From assembly GCA_963796455.1 (NCBI GenBank), contig CAWCLO010000005.1, positions 1 to 64,000 on the forward strand: a DNA stretch of 64,000 nt. Reading direction: 5' to 3'. This stretch comes from Candidatus Sulfomarinibacteraceae bacterium. GTDB lineage: Bacteria > Acidobacteriota > Thermoanaerobaculia > Thermoanaerobaculales > Sulfomarinibacteraceae. How positions within the stretch are numbered: the stretch's first letter is position 1; the number at the start of each line of letters is the position of its first letter. Under the pieces are notes generated by a model. The model was not told the DNA's origin. It worked only from the letters and a program-made list of their open reading frames with translations, and made no database searches. This document shows, piece by piece, positions 3,234 through 63,872 of the stretch. Made by a program: the position numbers and the translations under genes.

Positions 3234-3254
3234 CGGGCATCCTTCGATGCCCGC

Positions 3255-3306
3255 AGAATTCGGAGTTCGGAATTCGGAGTTCGGAATTCGGAGTTCGGAA
3301 TTCGGA
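3255..3306. repeat. Heptamer microsatellite (GGAATTC/GGAGTTC)n
   Basis: Direct reading; lies between convergent genes. Confidence 0.9.
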
Positions 3307-3346
3307 TTGCCGCCCACCGACGACGCATCGGGGATCGAAGGCCGTT

Positions 3347-7913: not shown

Positions 7914-7958
7914 GCGAATCCCCTTGTATGTGTGGGGATCGAGGGGGAAATGAGGGGG
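7914..7958. promoter_or_regulatory. Putative regulator-binding motif, copy 2
   Basis: GCGAATCCCCT-tgtatgtgt-GGGGAT...AGGGGGAAATGAGGGGG, matching 1116-1148. Confidence 0.5.
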
Positions 7959-7970
7959 TAGGACAATTGT

Positions 7971-8123
7971 GAGTTCGGAGTTCGGAGTTCGGAGTTCGGA
8001 ATTCGGAATTCGGAATTCGGAATTACATCGCACCATCGCAATTAGGAATTAGGAATTGCATCGCACCATCGCGACGTCACATTTCGGATTTCGGATTTCG
8101 GATTTCGAATTTGCCATCGCACC
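7971..8123. repeat. Heptamer microsatellites (GGAGTTC, GGAATTC, GGATTTC) with CATCGCAC
   Basis: Direct reading. Confidence 0.9.
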
Positions 8124-8155
8124 AAAGCGCGAGTTTTGAGTCTCCGCCCTGGCTT

Positions 8156-33723: not shown

Positions 33724-34692
33724 ACCACAGAGACACAGAGATCGAGCAGAGGGCGGCAGCGTCAGAGGAATGCCCGCTGATCACGCAGATGGCGCAGATC
33801 CATCGCTATCGCTATCGCTATCGCTATCGACGGGAGACGGGACCGGATATCCCACAGATTACCCAGATCACCCAGATAGCGGACGTCGCAACCACCAAGA
33901 CACAAAGACACGAAGGAGTCACACCAAGAAAACCACAGAGGCACGGAGACACAGAGAGATCACAGAGGAGAAGTGCAGCCGAGACGGCTGCACCACCATG
34001 GTGGTGCACGCGTCTCGCGTGCACATTGATGAACCGCAAAGAACGCAAAGAGCTGAATGGCGAGCTTGTGAGGTGTTGCCATCAGTGTCGGCAGATCGAC
34101 AGACGATCTCCAATCGCCTGTCACCGGTGAGAAGCGGGGTGACCCCGATCGCCGGCGCTCGGAGTCACCCCGCTCCCCACCGGCCGGCACGCCTCCGGCA
34201 TGCCGGATCTGCCTTGCATCGGAGACCCCCCTTTCTTGATTGAAGGACAGGGAAGGGAGGAGGCGATGCCTGCGCGGTCGCGCAGGCAGCTGGGTCAGGA
34301 AACCGCGACGAAAGCTGGTTTTCGGGGCGGTTTCCTGACCCAGCTGTACCTGGCCGCCCTTGGCGGCCAGAATCTCGCCGGGCGGAGGATTCTTCCGGGA
34401 CGTCCTCTGCGTCTCTGCGCCTTTGCGTCTTTGCGTTAAGAACCCGAGAGGCGGACGTGGATTGTTTGCGGCGGTGGCTGATGTCTCTGCAATTGATCCG
34501 TCATCTGCGTCTATCCGCGTGATCTGCGGGCAAATCGTGCGGCCGTGCGATGGCTTCTGTGTTTTTCTGTGTGTTCTGTGGGCCTTCGCGCTGTTTTATT
34601 CTGTCTTCTTTGTGATGCCTTCGTGTCTTTGTGCCTTCGTGTTTGCGACGTGATGGCCCGGCCGTTCAGGTTCGGCTCTGTGCCTCTGTGGT
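33724..34692. repeat. Composite ~1 kb palindromic repeat element, copy 1
   Basis: Purine-rich ~9-bp-periodic modules on the left and their reverse complements on the right, a REP pair, and a conserved core with a perfect 20-bp stem at 34287-34346. Confidence 0.88.
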
Positions 34693-39231: not shown

Positions 39232-40665
39232 CTACTGCCTGGAGAGCCAGCGCTGGAAGAATGCGCTGGCGATGGCGTAGCGGTTTTCGCCATCCGCCCG
39301 AATGAGACCGAGATTGGTCAGGGTTGCTGCAGATTCGGCGATCACCTGGTCGGACTCGCCGAGTCGTTTCTGAATCGCGGCCAGCTTCGCATCGGGTTTC
39401 TCGGCCAGAAAGCGAAGCAATTCTCGATCCGTTGCGCCCAGCAGTTCGAAATCCACCGCAAAGAAAAATCCGACGGCACGATCGGCCGCCAGCCCTTCGA
39501 TCGCCGGCTCCAACTCTCCGTGATCAAGATACCGGCGACACAGAAGTTGAATCACGTAGGGGTGGTTGCCGCACACCCGACGGATCGTTTCGATCCGGTC
39601 GTCCGAAAATGTCGGTCGGGCATTCTCCGCCAACTGGTTTTGTCGGATGACCGCCTCGGCCTCGTCGTCGCTCATGGGACCGATATACAGCGGCGGCGTG
39701 AATCCATCGAGAAACGGCGAGGTGTCTTCGCCCGGCGTGGCGAGCTCCCAGAGACGGCCGCTGGCCGCCAATACCGATCGGATTCCTTCGCGCGACTGGA
39801 GGGCGCGGCGGAGTTTGCGGAGGAGGGAAGGGTCTTTCTGATTCAGATTCAGGAGCTCTTCGACCTCGTCACACAAGAGCAGCAGACGAAGTTTGCGTGA
39901 CAGGAGTTGTCGTCGAAGTCGACCCAGCGACTCGAAACAATCATCGGCACGGACATCATCAAGCCGAACACCGGCATCCGAGAGGCGTTCCTCGGCGTCG
40001 AGCAGCGCCTCGGTAAAATCGAGATGGAGGTCCTCGGGGGTATCGGCACCCTGGAGGTCCCAGAATACCGGGACAAACCCCAGGTCCGGCGTCGTCGAAG
40101 CGATGAACTCCAGTTGTTTGAGAACCGAGGTCTTGCCGATGCGCCTCGTGCCGAGGAGCCAGATCCAGTTCCGATTGCCGCGCAGGACCTCTTCGATCAA
40201 GGCGGAGCGCCCATAGAAGTTTTCACCGCGCACCCATTGGCCGACGACGAATGGAATGCTCGGGCCCGTGGTCCGGTGAGGCTCCGGTGGAGGGATTGAC
40301 GTCGTCTGCTTTGTGCCGGGGCTTGCGCTGACCTCGGCGATTAAACGATAGCCGCGTTTCGAGATCGTCTCGATAAAGCGAGGCTGCCGGACATCGTCGC
40401 CAAAAGCCCGTCGCAGACCGGCGATCGACCGGGTGATGACCGATTCCGTGATGAAGACTTCGGGCCAGACCGCGTCGGTGATTTCTATTTTCGAAACCAC
40501 TGAGCCCGCGTGCTCGGACAGAAAGACCAACACATCCATCAATTTCGGCTCGAGTTGCACGATCGTGTCGTCGAGGGTGAGCCGGTTGAGGCTGGGTTCG
40601 ACGAGCCAGTCCCCGATTCTGAAATCGACGGCGCCAGCCTGGTTGTTTCTGTTCGAGCTATCCAT
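39232..40665 (-). CDS. CadC/OmpR-type winged-helix DNA-binding domain fused to a STAND-like P-loop ATPase (subtype A)
   Basis: FRIGDWLVEP..LEPKLMDVL..VW...ITRSIAGLRRAFGDD...FIETISKRGYRL; Walker A GTRRIGKTS; Walker B LLLCDEVE; GNHPY. Confidence 0.88.
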   Translation of the reverse strand: MDSSNRNNQAGAVDFRIGDWLVEPSLNRLTLDDTIVQLEPKLMDVLVFLSEHAGSVVSKIEITDAVWPEVFITESVITRSIAGLRRAFGDDVRQPRFIETISKRGYRLIAEVSASPGTKQTTSIPPPEPHRTTGPSIPFVVGQWVRGENFYGRSALIEEVLRGNRNWIWLLGTRRIGKTSVLKQLEFIASTTPDLGFVPVFWDLQGADTPEDLHLDFTEALLDAEERLSDAGVRLDDVRADDCFESLGRLRRQLLSRKLRLLLLCDEVEELLNLNQKDPSLLRKLRRALQSREGIRSVLAASGRLWELATPGEDTSPFLDGFTPPLYIGPMSDDEAEAVIRQNQLAENARPTFSDDRIETIRRVCGNHPYVIQLLCRRYLDHGELEPAIEGLAADRAVGFFFAVDFELLGATDRELLRFLAEKPDAKLAAIQKRLGESDQVIAESAATLTNLGLIRADGENRYAIASAFFQRWLSRQ

Positions 40666-41356
40666 CGAAAGGCATTCTATCGCGCGACGGTCGGAGCGAG
40701 GTCATATCGATCTCTTCGAAGAAGTTGTACCAGGGGCTCCCTTCCTGTTCCCACCGTTTGTCGATTTCGACCGCTGAAGCCACCATCACGAGATTCTCCG
40801 CCATGCTCATCATGAAGAGGCTCCGCACCTTCTGGTTGATTCGAGGGTCGAAGCCGTTGAGGGTGTCGATCTCGTTGACGAGCAGAGTCAGTCGAGCACG
40901 TTTCGGGCTGCGTGCGGCGAGCGCTTGAATGACGCGGCGAAAGTCCCGGGCGAGATCGCGGTGGTCGTAGTCCTTGCCGGGCCGTCGTGTGTCGGCCGGG
41001 GGTTCGGAACTGGGGATCGGCCCGAGTTGCGCCAGGACGGCGCGGCCGACCGTGGCGAAGAGCTGTTCCTCGGGCACGTCGTGAAGATCGATGTAAACGG
41101 GGTAGTAGTTGTGGACAGTGTCGTCATATGTTTTGAGGCGGTCTCTGAGATCGAGCAGCAGCGCGCATTTTCCAGTCCGTTTTTCGCCCCGGAGCAGCAG
41201 GCTGTTGTTGCTGATCGTACTGAGTATTCGGCTGAGCAAGCGCTCTCGGGTCGCGCCGTCGAGATGATCGTCTGTTCGACCGTCCACCGGGCCATCGCGG
41301 AGCCTGTGGTCCTGTTTGCACCAAAGATGGCGCCAGATCGAACGAAGAGACTGCAT
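40658..41356 (-). CDS. Short degenerate P-loop ATPase (subtype B), probable pseudo-ATPase
   Basis: NNSLLLRGEKRTGKCA, PVYIDL, LLVNEID, RINQKVRSLFM, EGSPWYNFFEEI; paralog of the C-terminus of 46384-48840. 8-bp overlap with the next gene. Start uncertain. Confidence 0.75.
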   Translation of the reverse strand: MQSLRSIWRHLWCKQDHRLRDGPVDGRTDDHLDGATRERLLSRILSTISNNSLLLRGEKRTGKCALLLDLRDRLKTYDDTVHNYYPVYIDLHDVPEEQLFATVGRAVLAQLGPIPSSEPPADTRRPGKDYDHRDLARDFRRVIQALAARSPKRARLTLLVNEIDTLNGFDPRINQKVRSLFMMSMAENLVMVASAVEIDKRWEQEGSPWYNFFEEIDMTSLRPSRDRMPFDG

Positions 41357-41423
41357 CAGTAGTTCCTTTGAGGGGTCGTGGCGACCTCCCACTCCAAGCT
41401 ATGCCGATGCTGGATTGAGTACT

Positions 41424-41469
41424 TGAGGTTGATATGAGGCTCCGGTGAGGGTTTTCCTCGTGCTAAAGT
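41424..41469 (+). promoter_or_regulatory. Promoter with three TGAGG boxes (11-bp period) and an extended -10
   Basis: TGAGG at 41424, 41435 and 41446; TGcTAAAGT at 41461-41469. Confidence 0.72.
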
Positions 41470-41512
41470 CGCCGATGACCTCCCCGCCCGAAATGGGGGA
41501 TCGGAATTGGCA

Positions 41513-42859
41513 ATGAGGGCTCTTCGTCTTCTTCTTGTGGTGCTCGCCGTGGCCGGCATTCTGACCTCGACTTCAGATGCCCAGCAAACCCCTGCGACCT
41601 TCGAATTCAGTTTCTCGAACCCCGGTGCCCGGAGCCTCGGTCTCGGAGGGGCCTTTGCCGCCCTCGCCGACGACGCCACGGCAGCTTTTGCCAACCCGGC
41701 GGGGTTGGTGCAGTTGGTTTCTCCCGAAATTTCGGCTGAACTTCGCCACTGGAGCTATTCGACACCCTATATCGAAGGTGGTCGTTACGAGGGTGAACCA
41801 ACTGGGATCGGTCTTGACACAACCGACTCTTTGCGGACCGCCGTTTCAAAAGAAGATCTCACCGGTCTGTCTTTCTTGTCATTTGTTTATCCGATGGGGA
41901 AGTGGTCTTTTGCGGTGTACCGCCACGAGCTGGCCAACTTCCGCGCCACCACCGCGACCGAGGGTCTGTTTCCTGGCGAGGACCTGCCCCGGGCGATCGA
42001 TCGAAGATGGTCGACCGATCTCGATATCGTCAGTTTCGGGGCAGCCGGCGCCTACCGGATCAGCGACCGGCTCAGCCTCGGCCTTGGTGTCGTGTATTTC
42101 GGCGGCCGTCTCGATGCTCCATTCGAGTGGTCTCTGCCGGACGATATTCAAACGTTCGAAGGCTTTTTTGGTCCGACCTCCTATCTTCCAGAGCAGCAGC
42201 TTGCCAATGGAGAGATGGCGATCGATGATTCTGATTGGGGATTGAACGTGGGTCTGCTCTGGAGCTTCGCTGAGGGGTGGAGCCTCGGGTCCTTTTACCG
42301 TCAGGCGCCGGAGTTCAGTCTGACCTACACCATCCGTGCGGGTCCGTCAGCACCCTTGTTGAACCCGGACTACACGGATGGCGGAACCATCGTGAAGATT
42401 CGTACGCCGATGCAATTCCCGGATGTCTATGGTGCGGGCCTCTCGTATCGCTCGGCCGACGGAAAGCTCGCCGTCGGATTCGAGTGGGACCGGGTGGAGT
42501 ACTCGTCGATCTTTGGCAGCTTCGATCCTGTCGCGATCGAAACGGTCGATGACGACCTCGACCTCGAGGTGGTGCTGGCCGCAGATGATGGGAACGAGTT
42601 TCGCCTGGGTGCCGAGTACGCCTTCCTCGATCTGCAGCCGGTTGTGGCCGTGAGGGCTGGTTTGTGGATTGACCCCGATCACCGTTTCCACAGCATCAGC
42701 GATGAACCCGAGCACCGCGCCTTGTTTCCGCCCGGGGAGGACGAACTCCACATAGCGCTGGGCCTCGGTCTCGCATTCTCTTCCTTCCAGATCGATCTCG
42801 CAGCCGATTTCTCCGATCTCGTCGACACCGTTTCGCTGTCGGCGATCTACAGTTTTTGA
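41513..42859 (+). CDS. FadL/OmpP1/TodX-like outer-membrane beta-barrel, paralog 1
   Basis: Signal peptide; GARSLGLGGAFAALADDATAAFANPAGL hatch motif; C-terminal AIYSF. Confidence 0.85.
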   Translation: MRALRLLLVVLAVAGILTSTSDAQQTPATFEFSFSNPGARSLGLGGAFAALADDATAAFANPAGLVQLVSPEISAELRHWSYSTPYIEGGRYEGEPTGIGLDTTDSLRTAVSKEDLTGLSFLSFVYPMGKWSFAVYRHELANFRATTATEGLFPGEDLPRAIDRRWSTDLDIVSFGAAGAYRISDRLSLGLGVVYFGGRLDAPFEWSLPDDIQTFEGFFGPTSYLPEQQLANGEMAIDDSDWGLNVGLLWSFAEGWSLGSFYRQAPEFSLTYTIRAGPSAPLLNPDYTDGGTIVKIRTPMQFPDVYGAGLSYRSADGKLAVGFEWDRVEYSSIFGSFDPVAIETVDDDLDLEVVLAADDGNEFRLGAEYAFLDLQPVVAVRAGLWIDPDHRFHSISDEPEHRALFPPGEDELHIALGLGLAFSSFQIDLAADFSDLVDTVSLSAIYSF

Positions 42860-42862
42860 CGG

Positions 42863-42991
42863 TCAAAGCACGGCCACGATCATCAGTACGATCAGCAGAA
42901 TCAATGCGGTGATGACTGTGATCGGCACGTCGGAAGGCCGCGGTTCGCCCGTGCTCGAATATCGTGAGGTGGCTTGTCGTCGGGATCCCAT
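42863..42991 (-). CDS. 42-aa single-TM micro-protein (not in the ORF track)
   Basis: GAGGAG RBS; MGSRRQATSRYSSTGEPRPSDVPITVITALILLIVLMIVAVL*. Confidence 0.55.
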   Translation of the reverse strand: MGSRRQATSRYSSTGEPRPSDVPITVITALILLIVLMIVAVL

Positions 42992-43054
42992 GACCCTGCT
43001 CCTCTCCCTCAGCTCTTCATTTCTCGAATATGGGTCTTCTCGATAGCCGTCGCT

Positions 43055-43111
43055 TGATGGATTTCTGAGGTCAGCGTGAGGGTCTGGTGAGGCTCTGCCC
43101 CGTGTTAGGAT
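43055..43111 (+). promoter_or_regulatory. Promoter with TGAGG boxes (11-bp period) and an extended -10
   Basis: TGATG at 43055; TGAGG at 43066, 43077 and 43088; TGtTAGGAT at 43103-43111. Spacing identical to 41424-41469. Confidence 0.72.
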
Positions 43112-43164
43112 CGGGCCCGAACCAGGGTCATTTATTGATGGTCGAGGAACTGTGGAGGAGCAGT

Positions 43165-44478
43165 TTGAGCTTCAAACACCGAATCCCGGCGATGATGGCT
43201 GTTTCGTGCCTGATTGCTGCCTTCACCGCCGCGCAGGAAGCACCGCCGGCGCTCGAGTTCAACTTCTCGAACCCGGGTGCCCGGAGCCTGGGGCTCGGTG
43301 GTGCATTTGCAGCCCTCGCCGATGACGCGACCGCCGCCTTTGCCAACCCCTCCGGCCTGGTCCAGTTGGCACTGCCGGAGATCTCGCTCGAACTGAGATC
43401 TCGCCGCTATCAGATTCCCTATACCACCGGAGGGCGGGTCGAGGGCCCCCCATCCGGTCAGGGCATCGATACCGTGGACGGCCTCCGAACCGGGGTCTCG
43501 AACGAAACCGTGTCCGGCCTGTCTTTTCTGTCTTTCGTCTACCCGGGCGAGCGGTGGTCGCTCGCCGTCTATCGCCACCAGCTTGCCGAGTACGCCATTC
43601 GGACCGAAATCGACGGTCTCTTCGGCGATGTGCCGGAAGGGGGCACCCGGCGCTATGACGACCAGCAACTGGTCACCCAGCTCGACATTGTCGGGACCGG
43701 CCTGTCGGGTGCTTTCAGAGTCAGCGACAACCTGAGCCTCGGGGTGGGTCTGAGCTATTTTACGGGTGATGTTCGGAATCAGGCGCATGTCTATCTGATC
43801 GACAGCTTCCCGGAGACATTTTGGCAGTCGAACTCGTTTTTTCCCGACCGCTTGTACACCATGAGCGACTTTGTCATCAAGGATTCGGATTGGGGTATCA
43901 ACCTCGGTTTTCTGTGGAAGATCGCCGACAGCTGGCGTCTCGGTGGTGTGTTTCGCGAGGGCCCGCGTTTCGACTACGAGTTGCAGATTCTGGCCGGTCC
44001 GGCATCCCCGCTTCCGGAGGGCAGCGTCATCGATTCACTGAACGGTCGATCCCTGGCCTTCCCGGATGTCTTGGGCCTGGGTGTCGCCTATCGATCGCCG
44101 GACGGCCGGTGGACGGTCGGCTTCGAGTGGGACCGGGTTGAATATTCGGTCATCAAAGAAACGCTCGACTCGCCATTGGCGGACACCTCGCTCGTGGCGC
44201 TCGAAGATGGTGATGAACTGCACCTCGGGGTCGAGTACGCCTTTCTGAAAACTTCTCCGCTGATCGCGGTTCGCGGCGGTCTTTGGCGGGATCCCGATCA
44301 TCGTTTTCGCTACACGGGATCGGACCCGTTTCAACAAGCGCTCTTTCCGGCGGGACAGGACGAACTGCACCTCGCACTGGGTGTCGGCATCGCCTTCAGT
44401 CGATTTCAGATCGATCTCGGAATCGATCTTTCGGAAGAGATCGACACCCTTGCGCTGTCGGCCATTTACAGCTTCTGA
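43165..44478 (+). CDS. FadL/OmpP1/TodX-like outer-membrane beta-barrel, paralog 2
   Basis: Same hatch motif (NPSGL), shares DSDWG.N.G.LW and GFEWDRVEYS with paralog 1, ends AIYSF. TTG start after GGAGG (ATG 43138 also possible). Confidence 0.85.
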   Translation: MSFKHRIPAMMAVSCLIAAFTAAQEAPPALEFNFSNPGARSLGLGGAFAALADDATAAFANPSGLVQLALPEISLELRSRRYQIPYTTGGRVEGPPSGQGIDTVDGLRTGVSNETVSGLSFLSFVYPGERWSLAVYRHQLAEYAIRTEIDGLFGDVPEGGTRRYDDQQLVTQLDIVGTGLSGAFRVSDNLSLGVGLSYFTGDVRNQAHVYLIDSFPETFWQSNSFFPDRLYTMSDFVIKDSDWGINLGFLWKIADSWRLGGVFREGPRFDYELQILAGPASPLPEGSVIDSLNGRSLAFPDVLGLGVAYRSPDGRWTVGFEWDRVEYSVIKETLDSPLADTSLVALEDGDELHLGVEYAFLKTSPLIAVRGGLWRDPDHRFRYTGSDPFQQALFPAGQDELHLALGVGIAFSRFQIDLGIDLSEEIDTLALSAIYSF

Positions 44479-46382
44479 TCGCGGGAATTCTCCGCAATGC
44501 GGTCGAGCGCTTGTTCGAGGTCGACGGCGCTGGCAATCCGATCCGCGGGATCTTTGGCAAGGCAGCGCAGGATCAGGGCCGCAAGCTCTCCCGGGATCTC
44601 CTCGGTCAGCGCCACCAGATCCGGCAGCGGGGCGTTGCGTTGCATCGCCAGGACCTCGGGGATGGAGTCGGCCTCGAAGGGGCGCCTGCCGGTCGCCATC
44701 TCGAAGATGACCAGACCCAGGGCATAAAGATCCGAACGTTCATCGAGCGGGTCGAGGGAAACCTGCTCCGGTGAGGCGTAGTGGGGGGTGCCGACAAAGA
44801 GCCCGTGTTGAGTGAGGCCGTGTTCGCCGATCAGTCTGGCGAGCCCGAAGTCGGCCAGAAAGGGTTCGCCTTTGGCGTCGAGAAGGATATTCGAAGGTTT
44901 GATGTCGCGATGGAGCACATTGCGCCGATGAGCCGAGGCCAGTGCCGAACACAGCTTGGCCGCGATCGAGATGACATCCGGCGCCGGCAAGGGCGCACTC
45001 TCGGAAATCAGATCGGCCAGGGTGCCACCTTCGATCCACTGCATTGTGAGATAGGTCCCGGCATCCGATGACCCCAGGTGGTAGACGCGGAGAATGTTGG
45101 GGTGGGCGATATCCCGCGACAACAGAATTTCCTGGCGGACGCGATCGAGAGCCTCCCGGTTGGCCACGTACTCGGGTCTGAGAAGCTTCAGGGCGACCCA
45201 CGAATCGAGCAGCGTGTCGCGAGCCTTGTAGACGCTGCCGGTGGCCCCAACGCCGATCTCTTCCGAAAGCGTGTAGCGTTGATCCACCATCCGAACCGAG
45301 ATGGTCGTGTCGCAGTCGCTCGCCTCGGGTGCGGGTGGCACTGGCGGTGGAGCGTATTCTTCGAGCCAGCGCCGAAGAAAAAACCCCGAGACGCAAAAAC
45401 TGCGCTGTTCATCGCGGCTGATCTGACCCAGGTTTTCGAGCCGTTGCAGAGCGTCCTCGCGGTCGACGGTGGAGACCCTGAGTGCCTCGTGAATTGACTG
45501 ATCGGAGGCCGATCCCTGTTCCGCAATCAGCCGGAGCACGGTTTGCTCGGTCGATGACAACAGCTCGAAATCCACCGAGAGGAAATAGCTGATCATTCGG
45601 TCACCGGAGACCTGTCGAACGGCTTCTTCAAGATCTCCGAGTTCGAGAAAGCGCTTGCAGACCAGTTGAATCAAGTAGGGGTGGTTGTCGCACCGGCTGC
45701 GGATTTCCTCGGCTTCGTCGACACCGATTCCTGCCCAGGCATCCTGAGTCAGGTGGTGCTGACGGATAAGCGATAGCGCTTCACGATCGGTGAGACCGGC
45801 GATGTAGAGAGGGGGGCTGAAACCGTGCAAGAAAGGCGATGTGTCGCCTCGTTGTTCCGCCAACGCGCAGAGCCGGACCGATGAGGTGAGTACCGATCGA
45901 AGTCCGTCGTGCGACTGCATCGCGCGGCGCAGTTTGCGCAGCAGAGCCGGGTTCTGACGATGGAGATTGAGGAGCTCCTCCACCTCATCGCAGAGCAGCA
46001 ACAATGAACGCCCCAGGCCCCGGACCTTGCGGCGAAGCAAACCCATGGATGCAAAGAGGTCGTCGCCCTCGATTTCTGAGATTTCGATTCCCATGCTCTG
46101 AAGACGGTCTTCGGCATCGAGCAATGCGTCTGAAAAGGTGAGGTCGAGCTCGGCCGAGTCTTCCGCTCCCTGGAAGTCCCAGAAGATTGGAACAAAGCCG
46201 CTGTCCTCGGAATCGGTCAGGTGCTCGAGTTGCTTGAGGAGCGAGGTCTTGCCGATCCGGCGGGTGCCGAGCACCCACAAGGAATTGCGGGGCCCATTCA
46301 GGATCTCGTCGATCAGCGCTGCCCGTCCATAGAAGCGTTGGCCACGGACCCACTGTCCAACGACGAAGGGATTCACCTGCAT
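44466..46382 (-). CDS. STAND-like P-loop ATPase (subtype A) fused to a C-terminal Hanks-type Ser/Thr kinase
   Basis: NPFVVGQWVRG..FYGR, GTRRIGKTS, LLCDEVEE; kinase motifs GVGATGSVY, VALK, HRDIKPSN, DFG, GTPHYASPE. Confidence 0.9.
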   Translation of the reverse strand: MQVNPFVVGQWVRGQRFYGRAALIDEILNGPRNSLWVLGTRRIGKTSLLKQLEHLTDSEDSGFVPIFWDFQGAEDSAELDLTFSDALLDAEDRLQSMGIEISEIEGDDLFASMGLLRRKVRGLGRSLLLLCDEVEELLNLHRQNPALLRKLRRAMQSHDGLRSVLTSSVRLCALAEQRGDTSPFLHGFSPPLYIAGLTDREALSLIRQHHLTQDAWAGIGVDEAEEIRSRCDNHPYLIQLVCKRFLELGDLEEAVRQVSGDRMISYFLSVDFELLSSTEQTVLRLIAEQGSASDQSIHEALRVSTVDREDALQRLENLGQISRDEQRSFCVSGFFLRRWLEEYAPPPVPPAPEASDCDTTISVRMVDQRYTLSEEIGVGATGSVYKARDTLLDSWVALKLLRPEYVANREALDRVRQEILLSRDIAHPNILRVYHLGSSDAGTYLTMQWIEGGTLADLISESAPLPAPDVISIAAKLCSALASAHRRNVLHRDIKPSNILLDAKGEPFLADFGLARLIGEHGLTQHGLFVGTPHYASPEQVSLDPLDERSDLYALGLVIFEMATGRRPFEADSIPEVLAMQRNAPLPDLVALTEEIPGELAALILRCLAKDPADRIASAVDLEQALDRIAENSRDQKL

Positions 46383-46383
46383 T

Positions 46384-48840
46384 TTACGGATTCTGATCGC
46401 GTTCGACGGCCTCGACATCGGAGACGGTGATGGTACGGCGGCCCTCTTCGTGGAGGCGGTTGACGAGGCTGATACACAGCCTCTGAACACGGTAGGGTTT
46501 GTTGTCGGTGAGCTCGACGATTCGATCCGCGACGCCCTCTTCGATCTTGAAGACGCCGAGGATCGGTCGGGTGATCAAGGCCTCCGTATCCTCCGGGCCG
46601 ATTGAGGTGATCTCGATCTCCTCGAAGAAGTTGTACCAGGGGCTGCCCTCTTTGTCCCACTGCTTCCGGATCTCGACCCCCGATACGACAGCCACCAGGT
46701 TTTCGGCGAAGCTCTTCATGAAGAGGCTTCGAAGCCGTTGGTTGATCCTCGGGTCATAGGCGTTCAGTTCATCGACTTCGTCGATGAGCAGTACGATCTT
46801 GACGTGTTTTGATGTTTGCTTTTTGAGCTGCTGCATGACCCGACGAAGATCTCGAACCAATTCGCGATAACCGTAGGCTGAGCCATCCTTGAGATCGGCC
46901 GGCGGTTTGACTTCGCCAAGCAGGGGGGCCAGTTCGTGAAACACATCCTCTGCGAGAGTTGCAAAAAAATGATCCTCGGGCGTGCCCTGAAGATCGATAT
47001 AGACGGGGAAGAACTCGTACTGCGGGTCCTCGAGTTGCTGCAACCTCTTTCTCAAGTGATGCTGCAGTGAAGTTTTGCCGATTCGGCGCTCTCCGTAGAG
47101 GAGCAGGCTGTTGTTGTGAACGGTCTGTAGAATCCTCTCGACGAGCTGTTCGCGGCCAAAAAACATCTGGTTGTCGAGCACCGGAGCCCCGGCGATATAG
47201 GGGTTGAAACGTCTCTTCAAGAGCCGGCGGCGTCGCGTCGCGCGCCGGGCCCAGACAATGGCCAGGACCGCGATCGGGGTGACGGCGACGAAAAGCTGGA
47301 ACCAGCCCGAACGATAGAAGGGAGCCGCGTATAAAACCGTGTACTCGGCGCTCGACGACAGACCTGCGCTGTCGGTTGCGAGCAGCTGATAGGTCGTCGG
47401 CCCGTCTTCGAGCTCGTCCGCGATGGAAAACTCGGTGATATAGATCTCGCCGACCGGCTGGCTCGAACTCGTGCCCTCGATCTCTTCGCCGGTCGACTTC
47501 TGGAAGCGCACCTCGACCGGCGAGTTGTCGATCACGACGCCGCTCAGGAAGAACCCGGGACGCGAAACCATCTGGACCCGCGAGCCGTCCTCACCGTCGA
47601 CCCTCGAATCGGCAAACCTGACGGCCGGTGGGATGTTCTCGACCGTCCGTGAACCGAGGAGGCGGCGGCTGATTGCTCCGTAAGACTGGCGAATCTGCTC
47701 GAGCGCCGCGGCGTTGCCCGGGTCGAGGGCGAGGGCGCGGTTGGCGCCCGATATGGCCCCTTCGAAGCGACCGTTCGTGAAATCTCTTTGCGCCTGGTCC
47801 AGCACGTCGGCGAGCGATGTCCGAGCCAGCGACGCCCGCTGATCGTTGAGTGCGCGTTGCTGCAGGGCCAGGGCCTCGCGGTTTTCGGGGTCGGCCGCGA
47901 GCACCGGTTGCAGGCGATCGAGGGCCTCCTCGTATTGTCCTGCCCGTTGCAACTCGCCGGCCTGGGCAAGGCCGCGGGCAACGGCTTCCCTCTGTGCTTC
48001 GGCGTCCTGGTCGGCCTGGATCTCCGCCAGCAATCCGGCCCTCGCCCGTGCCAGAAGTTGCCCGGATTCGTCGCTCGGCCGGAGCGATTGTGCCTGCTGG
48101 AATACGCTTGCGGCCTCGCTGAAATCTCCTTCTTGGAGGTGCTTCCGACCGGTTGCAACCAAGGCCTCTGCTCGGATTCGATCGGATTCGGTCTGTTCTC
48201 TCCGAACGACCTCCGTCCTCAAGTCTTCCATTTTGGAGACGGCTTCGGCATTTTCCGGATCCACCGCGAGACCGGCCCCGAGGGCCTCCATGGCAGCTTT
48301 GAGGCGGCCCTGTCTTTCGAGGATCTCGGCCTCGCGGAGGCTCGAGCGGACAATCTCCGTTATTCGTTCGCCTTCGGCCGCAGCCGCGCCTTCGCGGGCT
48401 TCGATCGCCAGTCTCCGATAGCGCTCGAGGTCGGCCATGGCCTCTTCAGAGGCCTGGACCGCACCCAGTTGTTCCTCGGTCTGGAATGCCTGCAGGGCGG
48501 CGTCGAGCTGACCGAGGTTGTAATAGGCGATGCCGAGCTTGAGGTATGGAAAATAGGCGACGACCTTCATTCCATAGGACCGAACCCGAGCTCCGGAATC
48601 ACCCTTGCGCTCCAAAGCTTGTTGCAACTCGCTGACTGCCACGGTCCACTCGCCGCGTTTGAGAGCGGTTTCGGCACGCGCGTAGTGTTCGTACCAATAG
48701 TCGGCCCAGGCAGGCGGGACGGCGGCCGTCAGCACACAGGCGAGGAGAATGCAGACGATGCCCGGTCGGACCGAAATGGAGGATCGCCAGATCGGATCTG
48801 CGCTGGCGGCCCGGCGGCGATGATGAGCTGTGGTCTTCAA
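46384..48840 (-). CDS. Exported TPR + Ig-like domain, single TM, cytoplasmic STAND-like ATPase (subtype B)
   Basis: TTG start after GGAG; signal peptide ending PAWA; TPR helices (ALALDPGNAAA); beta-rich domain; TM WFQLFVAVTPIAVLAIVW + RRATRRRR; FNPYIAGAPV..FFGRE, GERRIGKTS, LLIDEVD. Confidence 0.85.
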   Translation of the reverse strand: MKTTAHHRRRAASADPIWRSSISVRPGIVCILLACVLTAAVPPAWADYWYEHYARAETALKRGEWTVAVSELQQALERKGDSGARVRSYGMKVVAYFPYLKLGIAYYNLGQLDAALQAFQTEEQLGAVQASEEAMADLERYRRLAIEAREGAAAAEGERITEIVRSSLREAEILERQGRLKAAMEALGAGLAVDPENAEAVSKMEDLRTEVVRREQTESDRIRAEALVATGRKHLQEGDFSEAASVFQQAQSLRPSDESGQLLARARAGLLAEIQADQDAEAQREAVARGLAQAGELQRAGQYEEALDRLQPVLAADPENREALALQQRALNDQRASLARTSLADVLDQAQRDFTNGRFEGAISGANRALALDPGNAAALEQIRQSYGAISRRLLGSRTVENIPPAVRFADSRVDGEDGSRVQMVSRPGFFLSGVVIDNSPVEVRFQKSTGEEIEGTSSSQPVGEIYITEFSIADELEDGPTTYQLLATDSAGLSSSAEYTVLYAAPFYRSGWFQLFVAVTPIAVLAIVWARRATRRRRLLKRRFNPYIAGAPVLDNQMFFGREQLVERILQTVHNNSLLLYGERRIGKTSLQHHLRKRLQQLEDPQYEFFPVYIDLQGTPEDHFFATLAEDVFHELAPLLGEVKPPADLKDGSAYGYRELVRDLRRVMQQLKKQTSKHVKIVLLIDEVDELNAYDPRINQRLRSLFMKSFAENLVAVVSGVEIRKQWDKEGSPWYNFFEEIEITSIGPEDTEALITRPILGVFKIEEGVADRIVELTDNKPYRVQRLCISLVNRLHEEGRRTITVSDVEAVERDQNP

Positions 48841-48913
48841 CGGTGCTCCACGCCGAGTGTAACCCGGGACCGGGCCGAGGAAGCGGGCTTGTGAGTCGAG
48901 TAGGATGGTCTCC

Positions 48914-49627
48914 ATGACGAGTGAGAAGAGAATTCTGGACATCGACGGGGTGGAACTCGAACTGCGGTTGGTCCGGAAACGAGTCAAAAACGTCAATGCG
49001 CGGCTCTGCGGCGGCACGCTTTCGGTGAGTGCCCCATTCAGGATGTCGCGTCGCGAGCTCGACGAAACCATTGTTGATCTTGCCAGGTCTCTTCTGAGGC
49101 GGACGCGGGCCCTGCAGGTCAATGCCGACGGAAGGGCGGAAAAAGTCGCCCGCAAGATCGCGGCCCGGTTTGAATCACCACCAGCGGTCAACGAGGTGCT
49201 TTTTGTCACCAATCAGCGATCGCGTTGGGGAAGCTACAGTCCGCAGAAGGGTGTCGTTCGACTCAATGCCGCCCTCAAGCTCATGCCGCCGTGGGTGCTC
49301 GAGGCGGTTGTCGCACACGAGTTGGCGCACGCGTTTCACCTCGACCATTCCCCCGAGTTCTGGGAGCTGACGCGCTCCGTTTGCCGCCACACCGATCGGG
49401 CACGTGCATTTTTGGAAGGTGTGACCTGGCTCGCCTCATCCTGGGAGACCTTGCCGCCGGTCGAGAGGTCGCAGCTGGTAGGGGAGGAGCCGGTCCGTCC
49501 CGAAAGTGGCGATCTCCGGCGAAAGGGGGAAGGGGAGAAAGGGGGAAAGGGAGAGCCGTCACGAGTCCGTGGAAACAAAAATGAACAGCCCCCGGTTTTC
49601 TCTGCTCCCCGATTGCCCTTCGATTGA
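48914..49627 (+). CDS. YgjP/DUF45 (M48-like) zinc metallohydrolase
   Basis: RKRVKN.N.R, RWGSYS, VVAHELAH...HSPEFW. Confidence 0.85.
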   Translation: MTSEKRILDIDGVELELRLVRKRVKNVNARLCGGTLSVSAPFRMSRRELDETIVDLARSLLRRTRALQVNADGRAEKVARKIAARFESPPAVNEVLFVTNQRSRWGSYSPQKGVVRLNAALKLMPPWVLEAVVAHELAHAFHLDHSPEFWELTRSVCRHTDRARAFLEGVTWLASSWETLPPVERSQLVGEEPVRPESGDLRRKGEGEKGGKGEPSRVRGNKNEQPPVFSAPRLPFD

Positions 49628-49629
49628 AC

Positions 49630-50758
49630 CCAGGTGACCCAGACCGAGGGACGTCGCAAACACGAAGACACAAAGACACAAAGCAGCCACACCAAGAAAA
49701 CCACAGAGGCACGGAGACACAGAGAGAGAGAGAACGCCCGCAGATCACGCAGATAGACGCAGATTGATCATCGCTATCGCTATCGCTATCGCTATCGACG
49801 GGAGACGAATCGGATATGCCCACAGATCACCCAGATGGCCCAGATCGATGGACGTCGCAACCACGAAGACACAAAGACACGAAGAACATCACAAAGCCGG
49901 GCCATCGGTTTTGCCCACAGAGCACACAGAAAAACACAGAAGCCATCGCAAAGGCATGACCGGAGTGCAGCCGGGACGGCTGCACCACAATTGTGGTGCA
50001 CGCGTCTCGCGTGCACATGGTTGAACCGCAAAGAACGCAAAGAACGCAAAGAACGCAAAGTCGCAGAGACGCCAAGGCCTGGTTGGCGAGCTTTTGCGAC
50101 GTAGCCATCAGTGTCGGCAGATCGACCGACGATCTCCGATCGTCAGTCGCCGGTGAGAAGCGGGGCGCCTCCGATCACCAGTGCTCGGAGCCACCCCGCT
50201 CCCCACCGGCCGGCACGCCTACGGCATGCCGGATCTGCCTTGCATCGGTGACATCCTCACTTGATTGAAGAAAAGGAGAGGCAGGAGGCGAGCCCTGCGC
50301 GGTCGCGCAGGCAGCTGGGTCAGGAAACCGCGACGAAAGCTGGTTTTCGGGGCGGTTTCCTGGCCCAGCTGTACCTGGCCGCCATTGGCGGCCGGGACCT
50401 CGCCGGACTGGGGGTTCTTTCGGGAAGTCCTCTGCGTCTCCGCGCCTCTGCGACTCTGCGTTTAAAAACCGAGAGGCCGCCGCTGCTCGTTTGCAGAGGT
50501 GGTCGATGTCCATTCAATCAATCTGTCCATTGCGACTCTGCGTTCAATACACTCTTGGCAATATCGTCCAGCAGTTCGGCTGCCGTTGCGTCTCCGCGCC
50601 TTTGCGCCTTTGCGTTGAAAAACCCCGACGCTGACGCCGTTCGATTGCGGAGATGGCTGATGCCTCTGCAATCAGGCTGTCATCTGCGTCTATCTGCGTG
50701 ATCTGCGGGCATATTGCGCTGCTTCGCGACGTCTTTGTGTCTTCGTGTTTGCGACGTC
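49630..50758. repeat. Composite palindromic repeat element, copy 2
   Basis: Same modules and core as 33724-34692; core stem at 50312-50371. Confidence 0.88.
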
Positions 50759-53358: not shown

Positions 53359-54438
53359 ATGTTCGATGTGAAAAAACTTCTGATCGATGTCTTCGACCCG
53401 CAACCGGGTGAAGTTGTGACCTTTGCAGTCGACCTTCCGCACGGCGAAATTTCCGATCATGAAAGTTGGTCGGCTCGAAGGGCAATGGCCGAACGATGGC
53501 GTGCGGCGATGGCCGAAATCGGTGCCGAAAGAGAATTCAGCGTGCAGCCGATGCTTTCCTTTGAAGCCACCGGCGGCAACAACGCAGATCTTCCATCGAG
53601 GGCCCGCCGTGACGGCGAAGAGATCGATCTTCTCGAGGCACTCGAAGCATCGACGCTGGTGGTGGCGATGACCCAGTTTTCAGCCACGGCGCCGCTTGCC
53701 AATCTGGCTGAAGAAAACGATGATTTCCGTGCCGCGTCGATGCCGGGTGTCGAGGAGCGCATGGAGGGCACCGCGCTCGCTGCTGATTACTCGGTGGTGG
53801 CGGCCCACTGCAAGGCGATCTTCGACGCGATGCAGGGCGCGGAATTGTGCGACGTTCGTTTCTCGACCGGACACCGCTGCTTCTTCGATCTCCGCCACCG
53901 CACGCCGGAGATGGATGACGGGTTTCTGCCGCGCGGCAAGGACGGCGACCGCATCATCAACCTGCCCTCGGGAGAGACCTTCATCGTGCCCTATGAGGGT
54001 GAGTTCGAGGCGGTTCCGTCGTGGACCGCGGGCACCATCCCGGTGATGGAGGAGTCGGAGCTCGTGCTCTTTCACGTGGTTGCAAACTCGGTGGTGGTGA
54101 TTGAAGGTGAAGGCCCGGTGGCGGACAGATATGCTGCCCTTTTCGACGCCGATCCGGCGCGGGCCAACATCGCCGAGGTCGCATTCGGGGTCAACGACCA
54201 CGCCGAAGTCACGGGAATCGTCCTCGAGGACGAGAAGGCGGGATTCCATTGGGCCTTCGGACGTTCCGACCATCTCGGCGGCGTGGTGGGTGTGGAGGAC
54301 TTCGACGAGCCTGAGAACGTGATCCACCAGGACATCGTCTATGCGAAGGGCAACCCGATCCAGGCGGAACGCGTCGTGCTCATCCACCCGGACGGCCGGC
54401 AGGTGGTTGTCATCGACGAGGCGGAATATAAAATCTAG
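53359..54438 (+). CDS. M29-like (thermophilic metalloprotease/aminopeptidase) family protein
   Basis: NLPSGETF, NIAEVAFGVN, LEDEKAG.HWAFG, HQD. Confidence 0.7.
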   Translation: MFDVKKLLIDVFDPQPGEVVTFAVDLPHGEISDHESWSARRAMAERWRAAMAEIGAEREFSVQPMLSFEATGGNNADLPSRARRDGEEIDLLEALEASTLVVAMTQFSATAPLANLAEENDDFRAASMPGVEERMEGTALAADYSVVAAHCKAIFDAMQGAELCDVRFSTGHRCFFDLRHRTPEMDDGFLPRGKDGDRIINLPSGETFIVPYEGEFEAVPSWTAGTIPVMEESELVLFHVVANSVVVIEGEGPVADRYAALFDADPARANIAEVAFGVNDHAEVTGIVLEDEKAGFHWAFGRSDHLGGVVGVEDFDEPENVIHQDIVYAKGNPIQAERVVLIHPDGRQVVVIDEAEYKI

Positions 54439-54493
54439 AGTTCGGAGTTCGGAGTTCGGAGTTCGGAGTTCGGAGTTCGGATTTTGGATTTTG
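54438..54493. repeat. Heptamer microsatellite (GGAGTTC)n/GGATTTT
   Basis: Direct reading. Confidence 0.9.
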
Positions 54494-54551
54494 GGGGCGA
54501 CTGTGTCGGGCAGTGAGCGGTTGCGGTATTCTGTGCGTTCGGTGAGGAGGA

Positions 54552-55614: not shown

Positions 55615-55682
55615 TGTTCTCCCTTCAGCTTAGCGCATGAAGGCGCCGGGATATTCCGACTTGACCCGTCGCCGACACGATT

Positions 55683-56690
55683 GCCCACAGATTACCCAGA
55701 TAACCCAGATAGCCGACGTCGCAACCACCAAGACACCAAGACACGAAGGTGCCACACCAAGAAAACCAGGGAGGCACGGAGACACAGGGAGAGAGAATGC
55801 CCGCAGATCACGCAGATAGACGCAGATCCATCGCGCTCGCTTTCGTCGCAAACACGAAGACACAAAGACACGAAGGCGTCACACCAAGAAAACCACGGAG
55901 GCACGGAGACACAGAGAGAGAACGCCCACAGATCACGCAGATGGAAGCAGATCCATCGCAAACGGTCTCGTTGCAACCACGATGGCCCACAGAACACACA
56001 GAAAAGCACAGAAGCCATCGCAAAGGCACGACCGGAGTGCAGCCGGGACGGCTGCACCACCATGGTGGTGCACGCGTCTCGCGTGCACATGGTTGAACCG
56101 CGAAGAACGCAAAGAACGCAAAGTACGCAAAGACCTGAATGGCGAGCTTGTGCGGTGTTGCCATCAGTGTCGGCAGATCGACAGACGATCTCCGATCGCC
56201 CGTCGCCGGTGAGAAGCGGGGCGCCTCCGATCGCCAGCGCTCGGAGTCACCCCGCTTCCCACCGTCCGGCACGCCTCCGGCATGCCGGATCTGCCTTGCA
56301 TCGAAGACCCCCATTCTTGATTGAAGGAAAGGGGAGGGGATAGGCGAGACCTGCGCGGTCGCGCAGGCCGCTGGGTCAGGAAATCGAGACGAAAGCTGGT
56401 TTTTGGAGCGGTTTCCTGACCCAGCGGTACCTGGCCGCCCTTGGCGGCCAGGATCTCGCCGGTACTGGGGATGTTGCCGGGAAGTCCTCTGCGTCTTTTT
56501 TTTTCCGCGACTCTGCGTCTCTGCGTTCAATACACTTTTGGAAATATGGATCCAGCAGTTCGGTGGCCTTTGCGTTGATGAACCCGGACGCTGAAGCCGT
56601 TCGACTGCTGAGATGGCAGATGCGTTCGCAAGCAGGCTGTCATCTGCGTCCATCTGCGTGATCTGCGGGCATATTGCGCGGCTTCGCGAT
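55683..56690. repeat. Composite palindromic repeat element, copy 3
   Basis: Same modules and core; core stem at 56368-56427. Confidence 0.88.
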
Positions 56691-56711
56691 GTATTCGAAT
56701 TTGCGCGCTGT

Positions 56712-62777: not shown

Positions 62778-63872
62778 AGGAGCAGAGGAGCAGAGGGGCA
62801 GAGGGGCAGAGGGCACCCGCCCCTCATCACGTAAAGAGCTTCCTGTACGGTTCTCCCTTTCCCCTTTCCCCCTTTCTCCCTTCTCCCTTTCCCCTTTCTC
62901 CCTTTCGGGAACGGGATCGGAACTGTCGTTCAAGATGTCATCCTGAGCGAAGCGCCTTCGGCGCGAAGTCGAAGGATCTGCGGTCACGGGTCTTTCCCTT
63001 GTGCGTCATAGATCCTTCGACTGCGCCCCTGTGGGGCTGCGCTCAGGATGACATCGGGAGGCGACATGCCCGTGCAGGAGGAATCAGCGCCGGGTGGTTC
63101 TCCCTTTCCCCCTTTCCCCCTTTCCCCCGTTCTCCCTTTCAGGATCGGTATCCACCGCAGCCGTTCGATAGCGATAGCGATTCCGATAGCGATAGCGAGG
63201 ATGTCGAGCGATCCTCTGCTCCTCCGCCCCCGTGCCCCTCTGCCATGTGGACGCTTGTTCTCGCTTTCGGGATCGGGATCGAAACTGTCGTTCAAGATGT
63301 CATCCTGAGCGAAGCGCCTATGGCGCGAAGTCGAAGGATCTGCGGTCTGAGGCGGAGCCGTTCTATCTCATAGATCCTTCGACTGCGCCCCTGTGGGGCT
63401 GCGCTCAGGATGACATCGGGAGGCGACATACCCGTGCAGGAGGAATCAGCGCCGGGTGGTTCTCCCTTTCCCCCTTTCCCCCTTTCTCCCTTTCAGGAGC
63501 GGTATCCACCGCAGCCGTTCGATAGCGATAGCGATTCCGATAGCGATAGCGAGGATGTCGAGCGATCCTCTGCTCCTCCGCCCCCGTGCCCCTCTGCCAT
63601 GTGGACGCTTGTTCTCGCTTTCGGGATCGGGATCGAAACTGTCGTTCAAGATGTCATCCTGAGCGAAGCGCCTATGGCGCGAAGTCGAAGGATCTGCGGT
63701 CTGAGGCGGAGCCGTTCTATCTCATAGATCCTTCGACTGCGCCCCTGTGGGGCTGCGCTCAGAATGACATCGGGAGGCGACATACCCGTGCAGGAGGAAT
63801 CAGCGCCGGGTGGTTCTCCCTTTCTCCCTTTCAGGAGCGGTATCCACCGCAGCCGTTCGATACCGATAGCGA
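62778..63872. repeat. Tandem array of three ~355-360 bp units, each with a GTCATCCTGAGC palindrome, octamer purine/pyrimidine tracts and GATAGC hexamers
   Basis: CAAGATGTCATCCTGAGC recurs at 62931, 63293 and 63647 (periods 362 and 354 bp). Confidence 0.9.

Follow-up and report, generated by a model that had tools for sequence, protein, structure and literature searches.

In this study, we found that the window, the whole 64,000-nucleotide stretch analysed here, carries a locus that probably encodes a trans-envelope relay, in which two paralogous STAND/Cdc6-like ATPases, A and B, substitute for a His kinase and receiver. The locus represents a conserved module of Acidobacteriota and marine Gammaproteobacteria, which consists of an exported TPR-Ig-TM-ATPase B protein, an ATPase A with an output domain, and a FadL-family barrel. 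The first-pass annotation had proposed a relay without a His kinase that corresponds to no named system. The conserved core indeed contains no His kinase, no match was found in Pfam, NCBIfam, PADLOC or the literature searched, and the paired-ATPase relay is apparently undescribed.

All six annotated genes were confirmed in place, as were the two gene junctions and the ATPase motifs. On the minus strand, the receptor gene (TPR-Ig-TM-B, 46384-48840; start uncertain, TTG at 48840 or later) is separated by a 1-bp gap (46383) from the A-kinase gene (44466-46382), in which ATPase A (NBD, lid and winged-helix domain) is joined to a Hanks-type Ser/Thr kinase that is intact, with VALK, HRD and DFG all in its sequence. 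The second minus-strand pair, overlapping by 8 bp (40658-40665), comprises the lone B copy, B2 (40658-41356), and wHTH-A (39232-40665), a predicted operator-binding regulator that joins a winged helix of the CadC/OmpR type to ATPase A. Two FadL-family barrel genes lie between the pairs on the plus strand (barrel 1, 41513-42859; barrel 2, about 43192-44478); they are paralogous, as annotated, with 51% identity. The A domains of wHTH-A (A1) and A-kinase (A5) share 51% identity, B of the receptor (B6) and B2 share 52%, and A and B about 30%; no further copies of either subtype occur in the 5.0-Mb genome. Pfam models above cut-off were Trans_reg_C, Pkinase, Toluene_X (FadL) and TPR, and on the ATPases nSTAND1, ATPase_2 and AAA_22 scored near or below cut-off.

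The topology proposed for the receptor was supported by its homologs. A signal peptide is followed by an N-terminal TPR with a beta-hairpin, three more TPR hairpins with long connecting helices, an Ig-like domain, one TM helix, a basic stretch, and cytoplasmic ATPase B. The ectodomain was predicted with pLDDT 89 and pTM 0.45; among complete homologs, the N-terminus is hydrophobic in 66/66 and a TM helix (KD>1.6) is present in 54/66. An N-terminal hhGR motif and intact Walker A and B motifs, the latter reading hhhCDE or hhhIDE, were found in A1, A5 and B6, and not in B2. Across the alignments the Walker motifs are intact in 51/51 (Walker A) and 48/51 sequences for B and in 42/43 and 43/43 for A. 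After the lid, A continues into a winged helix (HTH matches, residues 274-326), whereas B stops. The best PDB match for A was 2FNA (E 0.0036); nSTAND1 (PF20703) scored 27.8, 19.3 and 36.3 bits against a cut-off of 27.1, covering fewer than 230 of its 379 positions.

The lone B copy had been listed among four genes with P-loop ATPase domains, but it is not a full ATPase: B2 is a truncated pseudo-ATPase paralog that lacks the N-terminal NPY..FGR, reads NE where Walker B has DE, and stops short of the lid. Thus, of the claim that the order B then A occurs twice, both junctions are real, but the second pair consists of a pseudo-ATPase and a regulator. B2 is nevertheless conserved under purifying selection (median dN/dS 0.22, 55 pairs), with a retention of 0.80 on the helix-3/helix-4 face, 0.04 in the lid and 0.13 in the N-linker. 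With its basic amphipathic N-terminal helix, it may be a non-catalytic copy of B at the membrane surface that tunes the threshold as a decoy or adaptor.

Linkage of B, A and barrel, the neighbourhood pattern that the annotation called for, is kept across phyla and not scattered. Of 71 genome loci, 33 are flanked by at least 8 kb on either side; in these mutually related loci, the ectodomain is present in 33/33, B in 32/33 and a barrel in 30/33, three loci lacking the barrel. Sixty-seven B-A junctions are co-directional with the B stop at most 21 nt from the first aligned residue of A, and in one natural fusion protein (P0056) propeller, TM, B and A form a single chain. The outputs vary: 136 complete A ORFs carry a kinase (57), a wHTH with a TM tail (34), a wHTH (23), an ECF sigma factor (6), kinase plus ECF (6), a TM tail (3) or no detected output (7), and a quick tree indicates repeated exchange of output domains across the A family. 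The cascade from kinase to transcription factor that had been envisaged is not obligatory; the kinase is dispensable, because many kinase-free loci carry the receptor, wHTH-A and the barrel.

Direct repeats, missed in the first-pass annotation, were found upstream of each barrel gene. Operator 1 (41422-41450, plus strand) contains three TGAGG repeats with an 11-bp period (41424, 41435, 41446), and operator 2 (43053-43092, plus strand) four TGA(T/G)G repeats with the same period (43055, 43066, 43077, 43088); both are predicted sites. With a PWM trained on sites of 24 relatives, the window excluded, operator 2 (56.6 bits) and operator 1 (44.9 bits) ranked first and second genome-wide; the next site scored 16.6 and the best column-shuffled score was 13.7. 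Operator 1 is flanked by an extended -10-like element toward barrel 1 (41461-41469) and a minus-strand -10-like element toward B2 and wHTH-A (41396-41401), and the wHTH-A operon is predicted to be autoregulated through it. Operator 2 is similarly placed between an extended -10-like element toward barrel 2 (43103-43111) and a minus-strand one toward a small ORF (43027-43032). The site was found in 9/10 congeners with the canonical system versus 1/14 others; five system-less congeners have close CadC-like wHTH paralogs, yet lack it. It is also present in 16/26 wHTH-A+DUF5666 loci (Gammaproteobacteria where named) and absent from kinase-only (0/28) and ECF-type loci (0/10; 0/38 together). Each of the 11 extra sites precedes an OmpW-like (8) or TBDR-like (3) gene, always in the same orientation. 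The exact repeat pattern, which was drawn up by eye from the two high-scoring locus groups, is missing from 9/10 loci classed as "wHTH-A other", 10/26 DUF5666 loci and 3/18 hydrolase-type loci.

These sites are tandem direct repeats beside putative target promoters, the arrangement of OmpR/PhoB-type operators, and the repeated site beside the barrel genes suggests that the relay switches those genes. The annotated transcriptional control of the barrels was upheld in part: the operator tracks with wHTH-A, but the promoter geometry constant at all sites is that of the genes (OmpW, hydrolase, TBDR) that diverge from the FadL barrels. For the gammaproteobacterial barrel genes, no operator above 14 bits was detected within their own 420 nt upstream (0/46).

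Both barrels belong to the FadL/OMPP1/TodX family. The model of barrel 1 has 14 strands and a three-helix N-terminal hatch (pLDDT 91.8, pTM 0.88); barrel 2 has a signal peptide, a C-terminal Phe and a Toluene_X match of 48.9 bits (cut-off 29.7). The barrels may serve as input as well as output, because the receptor's tip TPR accompanies barrels without any ATPase: in ATPase-free regions, this TPR has a barrel nearby in 14/38 cases and a kinase in 28/38, and there are two direct TPR-TM-kinase fusions.

From these data, a mechanism can be proposed. Its sequence shows the receptor to be an inner-membrane protein, with a long TPR rod on the periplasmic side and ATPase B on the cytoplasmic one. B may be clustered or switched by a ligand or a state of the envelope, which the tip TPR would most likely sense at the FadL-family barrel or through it; active B may then nucleate oligomers of A, much as sensor NLRs do with helper NLRs. 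We infer that A and B form hetero-oligomers; the NLR analogy is loose, since B lacks the STAND-defining winged helix and both A and B lack an Arg at the usual finger position. Oligomerised wHTH-A very probably binds the 11-bp repeats, three or four of which are arranged head to tail, and would activate the promoter divergent from the barrel, driving an OmpW-like barrel, exported hydrolase, TonB-dependent receptor or DUF5666 lipoprotein. Here it would also activate its own operon and cover the barrel promoter, where either sign is possible. A-kinase may be an optional second output, replaced in other lineages by an ECF sigma factor on A. In sediments, the relay most likely serves to induce the uptake and degradation of hydrophobic organic compounds, the ligand being a guess from family membership. 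More tentatively, and with rather less confidence than in the relay itself, the locus might represent a new signalling class, with the FadL-family barrel as outer-membrane receptor, the TPR rod as periplasmic relay, a sensor/helper STAND-like pair replacing phosphotransfer as a universal plug able to drive a winged-helix activator, ECF sigma factor or kinase, and the pseudo-ATPase as built-in modulator.

Alternatively, wHTH-A could act by itself as a one-component STAND regulator of the MalT/AfsR kind and respond to a cue from the cytoplasm, with the receptor and A-kinase separate and the linkage reflecting shared function and not contact. The wHTH-A gene lies kilobases from the receptor gene here and divergent from it in Gammaproteobacteria, and an underpowered covariation analysis gave no signal. 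We nonetheless consider this unlikely: A itself lacks a sensor domain, B stands beside or near A at nearly all loci whichever the output, B and A are fused in P0056, loci without a kinase keep receptor and wHTH-A together, wHTH-A has gained a TM tail in 34 ORFs, and B2, coupled to wHTH-A, keeps its helix-3/helix-4 face while losing lid and N-linker. It is also improbable that B works as an ExeA-like membrane motor or assembly factor, gating the barrel or aiding cargo export or anchoring, with the A outputs merely reporting its state. B does consist of NBD and lid without a winged helix and matches AAA_22, cargo genes encode exported proteins, and the barrel N-terminus weakly matches PorV/PorQ and BamG models; these scores are far under the NCBIfam cut-offs (PorV_fam 35/90 bits, BamG 25.7/250), the same TPR and barrel are wired directly to kinases without an ATPase, and the transcriptional outputs are constant while cargo varies by lineage.

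An anti-phage or conflict system, with the receptor detecting attack on the envelope and A mounting a response, seems very unlikely. STAND NTPases are generally known to be often immune, distant A relatives carry TIR, SIR2, CHAT and EAD7 domains, the system is patchy within the genus (11/24 congeners), and a two-gene active/inactive STAND operon has been predicted as a conflict system in the accessible text of PMC8195603. Against this, no toxic effector was identified among the output domains of the 136 A ORFs (seven with none detected), PADLOC matches were limited to a generic kinase domain and weak scores, the sensor ectodomain is conserved and not hypervariable, neighbouring genes are metabolic, the predicted regulon comprises uptake-type barrels, and 0/41 candidate relatives on viral contigs were confirmed.

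The relay with paired ATPases differs from the known systems it resembles. The six genes encode no His kinase or receiver domain, and His kinases flank few loci (clusters 23 and 24, 4 loci each). FecA-FecR-FecI uses a TonB-dependent receptor barrel, a periplasm-spanning transducer and anti-sigma factor, an ECF sigma output and feedback on barrel genes. The proposed relay is alike in barrel, transducer, transcriptional output including ECF sigma, and barrel-gene feedback, but has a 14-strand FadL-type barrel and an ATPase pair; no signalling-domain TonB-dependent receptor or FecR was found among recurrent locus genes, and TBDRs appear solely as predicted targets. MalT and AfsR/AfsK likewise combine a STAND ATPase with a DNA-binding domain, or a Ser/Thr kinase with a regulator, but they contain sensor repeats themselves and work without a partner ATPase. 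The Npun2340/2341 family was reportedly defined by Leipe in 2004, and adjacent gene pairs are said to have been noted then. With this MNS-clade STAND family (PF01637 ATPase_2; PDB 2FNA) and nSTAND1, the ATPases share the N-terminal FxGR, GxRRxGKT P-loop, hhhhDE and an SP motif after the sensor strand, and A also the C-terminal winged helix; their scores are near or below cut-offs, B lacks the winged helix, and the receptor topology and transcriptional outputs do not appear in the accessible descriptions of those ATPases. Avs and bacterial NACHT proteins carry an N-terminal toxic effector, central STAND and C-terminal repeat sensor in one protein, with D[GAS]hDE for NACHT; this architecture was not found here, nor was an Avs profile among the matches listed. 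We know of no experimental precedent in bacteria for a membrane-spanning STAND receptor passing its signal to a second STAND.

The nSTAND2 operon (Kaur et al. 2021, PMC8195603), as far as its accessible text describes it, has two STAND genes, one inactive, predicted to hetero-oligomerise; its Arg fingers are conserved, the inactive copy bears GT4/HEPN effectors, and neither a receptor nor a barrel belongs to it. In the present module, both A and B are intact, the outputs are regulatory, and no inactive STAND fused to a GT4 or HEPN effector was found in the genes or loci surveyed. ToxR/TcpP/CadC regulators, in the portions available of PMC7496328, share the DNA-binding family, direct-repeat operators and barrel targets (here predicted), ToxR inversely regulating ompU/ompT. 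ToxR and CadC combine their own TM and periplasmic sensor, whereas here sensor and DNA-binding domain reside in separate proteins, each with an ATPase; wHTH-A has no TM, and the CadC model covers residues 15-115 only. Kinase-associated ECF groups also place a Ser/Thr kinase beside an ECF factor but need no partner ATPase; the word "ATPase" is absent from the main text of PMC7826278.

A FadL-type barrel as signalling input would, if true, also be new. Since the operator provides a direct read-out, the system could be reconstituted together with a reporter in a laboratory host, making the ligand, A:B contact and barrel role testable, and with its exchangeable outputs it is also a candidate relay for synthetic biology. 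Uncultured Acidobacteriota and Woeseiaceae of sediment and soil commonly carry the module. Also missed previously was a 42-aa single-TM ORF with its own RBS (42863-42991, minus strand), for which a Pfam search gave no match. In relatives, which carry an OmpW barrel and hydrolase that are both lost here, it follows the gene for this 861-aa exported serine hydrolase; the ORF is present in 12/13 relatives, and in the 13th it can be read in a different frame.

All six genes of the locus at 39232-48840, which the first-pass annotation had proposed as a trans-envelope signalling system, were recovered with the motifs, 1-bp gap and 8-bp overlap described there. Two subtypes of STAND-like P-loop ATPase, A and B, are encoded on the reverse strand: wHTH-A (39232-40665), a lone B termed B2 (40658-41356), A-kinase (44466-46382) and a receptor in which B follows an exported TPR/Ig ectodomain and a TM helix (46384-48840). 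Barrel 1 (41513-42859) and barrel 2 (43192-44478) lie between them on the forward strand. The A domains share 51% identity and the B domains 52%, versus about 30% between A and B, and the 5.0-Mb genome holds no copies beyond two A and two B. Pfam and a PDB sequence search placed both barrels in the FadL family, as had been proposed, and modelling agreed, giving 14 strands and a hatch at the N-terminus. In the modelled ectodomain, a tip (N-terminal) TPR carrying a beta-hairpin is accompanied by three further TPR hairpins, with helices of 35-45 residues between them, and by an Ig-like domain; it could span the periplasm, a reach that is a tentative estimate at the model's pTM of 0.45. A YgjP-like metallopeptidase gene (48905-49627, forward strand) sits immediately upstream of the receptor and converges with an extension of an ORF; it keeps this position in nine loci of close relatives, which is probably plain synteny.

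The anticipated co-occurrence of A, B and FadL-like barrels proved to be conserved. A scan with A recovered 71 genome loci, and metagenome relatives were taken as the best 80 of 246 matches; none was confirmed in the viral contigs scanned. In the 33 of the 71 genome loci that were flanked by 8 kb or more on each side, the ectodomain was present in 33, B in 32 and a barrel in 30; these loci are mutually related and the counts are not independent. Named hosts included Thermoanaerobaculia, Polarisedimenticolia, Vicinamibacteria, Woeseiaceae, other Gammaproteobacteria and one Hyphomicrobium record. In 67 co-directional B-A junctions, the B stop lies at most 21 nt from the first aligned residue of A, and protein P0056 is a single chain that runs from a propeller/Y_Y_Y ectodomain through a TM segment to B and A.

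The output domains of A are interchangeable. The 136 complete A ORFs carried a kinase (57), wHTH with a TM tail (34), wHTH (23), ECF sigma (6), kinase plus ECF (6) or a TM tail (3), with no output domain detected in 7; a rapid tree built from 67 A domains, with four B outgroups, requires 10 changes of output label where 6 is the minimum. The kinase, previously put forward as a system component, is dispensable, since L071, L077, L213-L215 and the Gammaproteobacterial loci keep receptor, wHTH-A and barrel without it. L213, L214 and L215 represent a second subtype with receptor, short FadL-like barrel, OmpW and wHTH-A.

The tandem direct repeats expected of an OmpR/CadC winged helix were identified as putative operators upstream of both barrels (operator 1, 41422-41450; operator 2, 43053-43092), where TGA(T/G)G repeats at an 11-bp period gave three overlapping matches against an expectation of 0.03. 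A weight matrix built from 24 relatives' sites, with the window left out, ranked these sites first and second genome-wide (56.6 and 44.9 bits; next 16.6), and the best score among five column-shuffled matrices was 13.7 bits. When 97 loci of 6 kb or longer were screened, the exact pattern occurred in 15/18 hydrolase-type and 16/26 wHTH-A+DUF5666 loci, counts that are partly circular because the pattern was drawn by eye from these two groups. It was found in 1/10 other wHTH-A and 1/5 unclassified loci, and in 0/28 kinase-only and 0/10 ECF-type loci. The second-subtype loci L213-L215 show no exact match. In a less circular comparison among congeners, operator sites occur in 9/10 genomes with a canonical receptor versus 1/14 others, and the long barrel in 9/10 versus 0/14. 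Five system-less congeners encode CadC-like paralogs closely related to the wHTH, with identities of up to 61%, yet showed no operator site. Five Gammaproteobacterial genomes, picked for having a site at the locus, had exactly one match apiece; of five kinase/ECF-type genomes with a single A each, four had no match and one had an unrelated tandem repeat. The geometry resembles that of ToxR and OmpR-family direct-repeat operators as outlined in parts of PMC7496328.

Outside the locus, system-carrying genomes have 11 sites: eight lie upstream of OmpW-like genes (five recognised by HMM, the rest by eye) and three upstream of TonB-dependent-receptor-like genes (one recognised by Pfam). A short FadL-like barrel follows six of the eight OmpW-like genes. 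All 11 sites point the same way, and a -10-like hexamer comes some 20 nt past the last repeat; thus, the constant target would be whichever gene diverges from the long barrel, namely OmpW-B2-wHTH-A, a hydrolase with a small protein, or a DUF5666 lipoprotein with the receptor. Barrels of the genus have their own extended -10 promoter, which overlaps the repeats from the opposite side, and no site was found for the Gammaproteobacterial barrels themselves (0/46). The OmpW gene and 861-aa hydrolase of relatives have been lost from the window's genome, so that operator 1 now precedes B2-wHTH-A, and operator 2 a 42-aa membrane ORF (42863-42991, reverse strand) conserved in relatives. A third strong site in this genome (C6:152631), scoring 30.1 bits on the repeats alone, has a frameshifted TonB-dependent-receptor-like gene on one side and the gene for a 2455-aa surface protein on the other, and is likely a regulon member. 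In the Gammaproteobacterial-type loci L117, L126, L149, L158 and L162, the barrels are preceded by another conserved motif (GGGAA...TATTG.GGTC-like), which may mark a further regulator or promoter type.

B2 had been read as a lone subtype-B ATPase; its relationship to B stands (52% identity), but it is not a full ATPase, as the Walker-B DE is gone in 11/11 orthologs (9 DG, 1 DH, 1 NE) and the lid is missing in 10/11. Its median dN/dS was 0.22 (55 pairs), compared with 0.10 for the receptor B and 0.17 for A. Across 13 sequences, its helix-3/sensor/helix-4 region retained a mean of 0.80 of B-invariant columns, the N-linker 0.13 and the lid 0.04; most orthologs have a basic, amphipathic N-terminus. 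We infer that B2 may be a modulator without catalytic activity, and that its retained surface is the one likely to contact A.

We consider it fairly probable that the locus encodes a relay: B of the receptor would nucleate A oligomers, through which wHTH, ECF or kinase outputs would be switched on, inducing uptake genes of the outer membrane whose substrates are probably hydrophobic. The architecture, the gene linkage, the intact catalytic motifs and the operator with its distribution are seen directly in the sequences; the ligand, the barrel as input, contact between A and B, the sign of control and the part played by B2 are inferred. Counted against the relay are the lack of a STAND winged helix in B, the lack of Arg at the usual finger position, and the missing barrels at three well-flanked loci. 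As an alternative, an independent one-component regulator seems rather unlikely.

A membrane motor is less probable still. A role in immunity is the least probable of these readings for this locus. Distant A relatives (P0053, P0092, P0112, P0114, P0051, P0020) are fused to SIR2, TIR, CHAT, EAD7, PP2C phosphatase and wHTH+FHA, and the first four fusions suggest that the wider B-A plug may have conflict roles elsewhere. PADLOC matches at the locus were weak or limited to a generic kinase domain.

The system is real and conserved, and apparently undescribed in the literature searched, consistent with the initial view that it is not a named system. MalT, AfsR, FecARI, ExeA and sensor/helper NLRs are comparison systems, PDB 2FNA is an archaeal ATPase, and Leipe's 2004 work may have noted paired genes already. 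No NCBIfam model matched the locus proteins at cut-off, and literature searches found nothing on the module. It is not described in the accessible parts of PMC8195603, which cover nSTAND1, nSTAND2 and Npun2340/2341, or in those of PMC10907252, PMC7826278, PMC7496328 and bioRxiv 2022.07.19.500537. It is regarded as a new form of STAND signalling, and its operator can be tested.

A phylum-wide sample of 251 genomes yielded the tip TPR in 50. Forty tip-TPR regions from the upper part of the match list were examined, and the ATPase pair was present in two. The other 38 had a family barrel nearby in 14 cases, well above background given that the barrel profile matches only 4 ORFs in the window genome's 5 Mb, and a Ser/Thr kinase in 28, a weaker figure because tip-TPR genomes are kinase-rich. 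Several of these regions are operons of the form kinase-barrel-TPR, and in two the TPR is fused to a kinase. TPR and barrel thus stay associated even when the transducer in the cytoplasm differs, as would be expected of a barrel-TPR sensing unit. The ATPase-less operons of kinase, FadL-like barrel and exported tip TPR, with TPR-TM-kinase fusions (L250, L257, L271, L283, L285), form a wider module in Acidobacteriota that is seemingly unstudied.

Repeats were also observed elsewhere in the window. An intergenic element of roughly 0.8-1.1 kb occurs three times (33770-34560, 49609-50740, 55674-56700), once directly flanking the locus; its copies are 66-95% alike in blocks, have short repeats inside, and are possibly a non-autonomous mobile element. 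Intergenic 7-nt microsatellite arrays occur at 1128-1236, 3242-3337, 7957-8126 and 54424-54505. Three tandem units of about 355-360 bp at 62896-63848 are 85-99% alike and share short REP-like motifs with 1521-1657.
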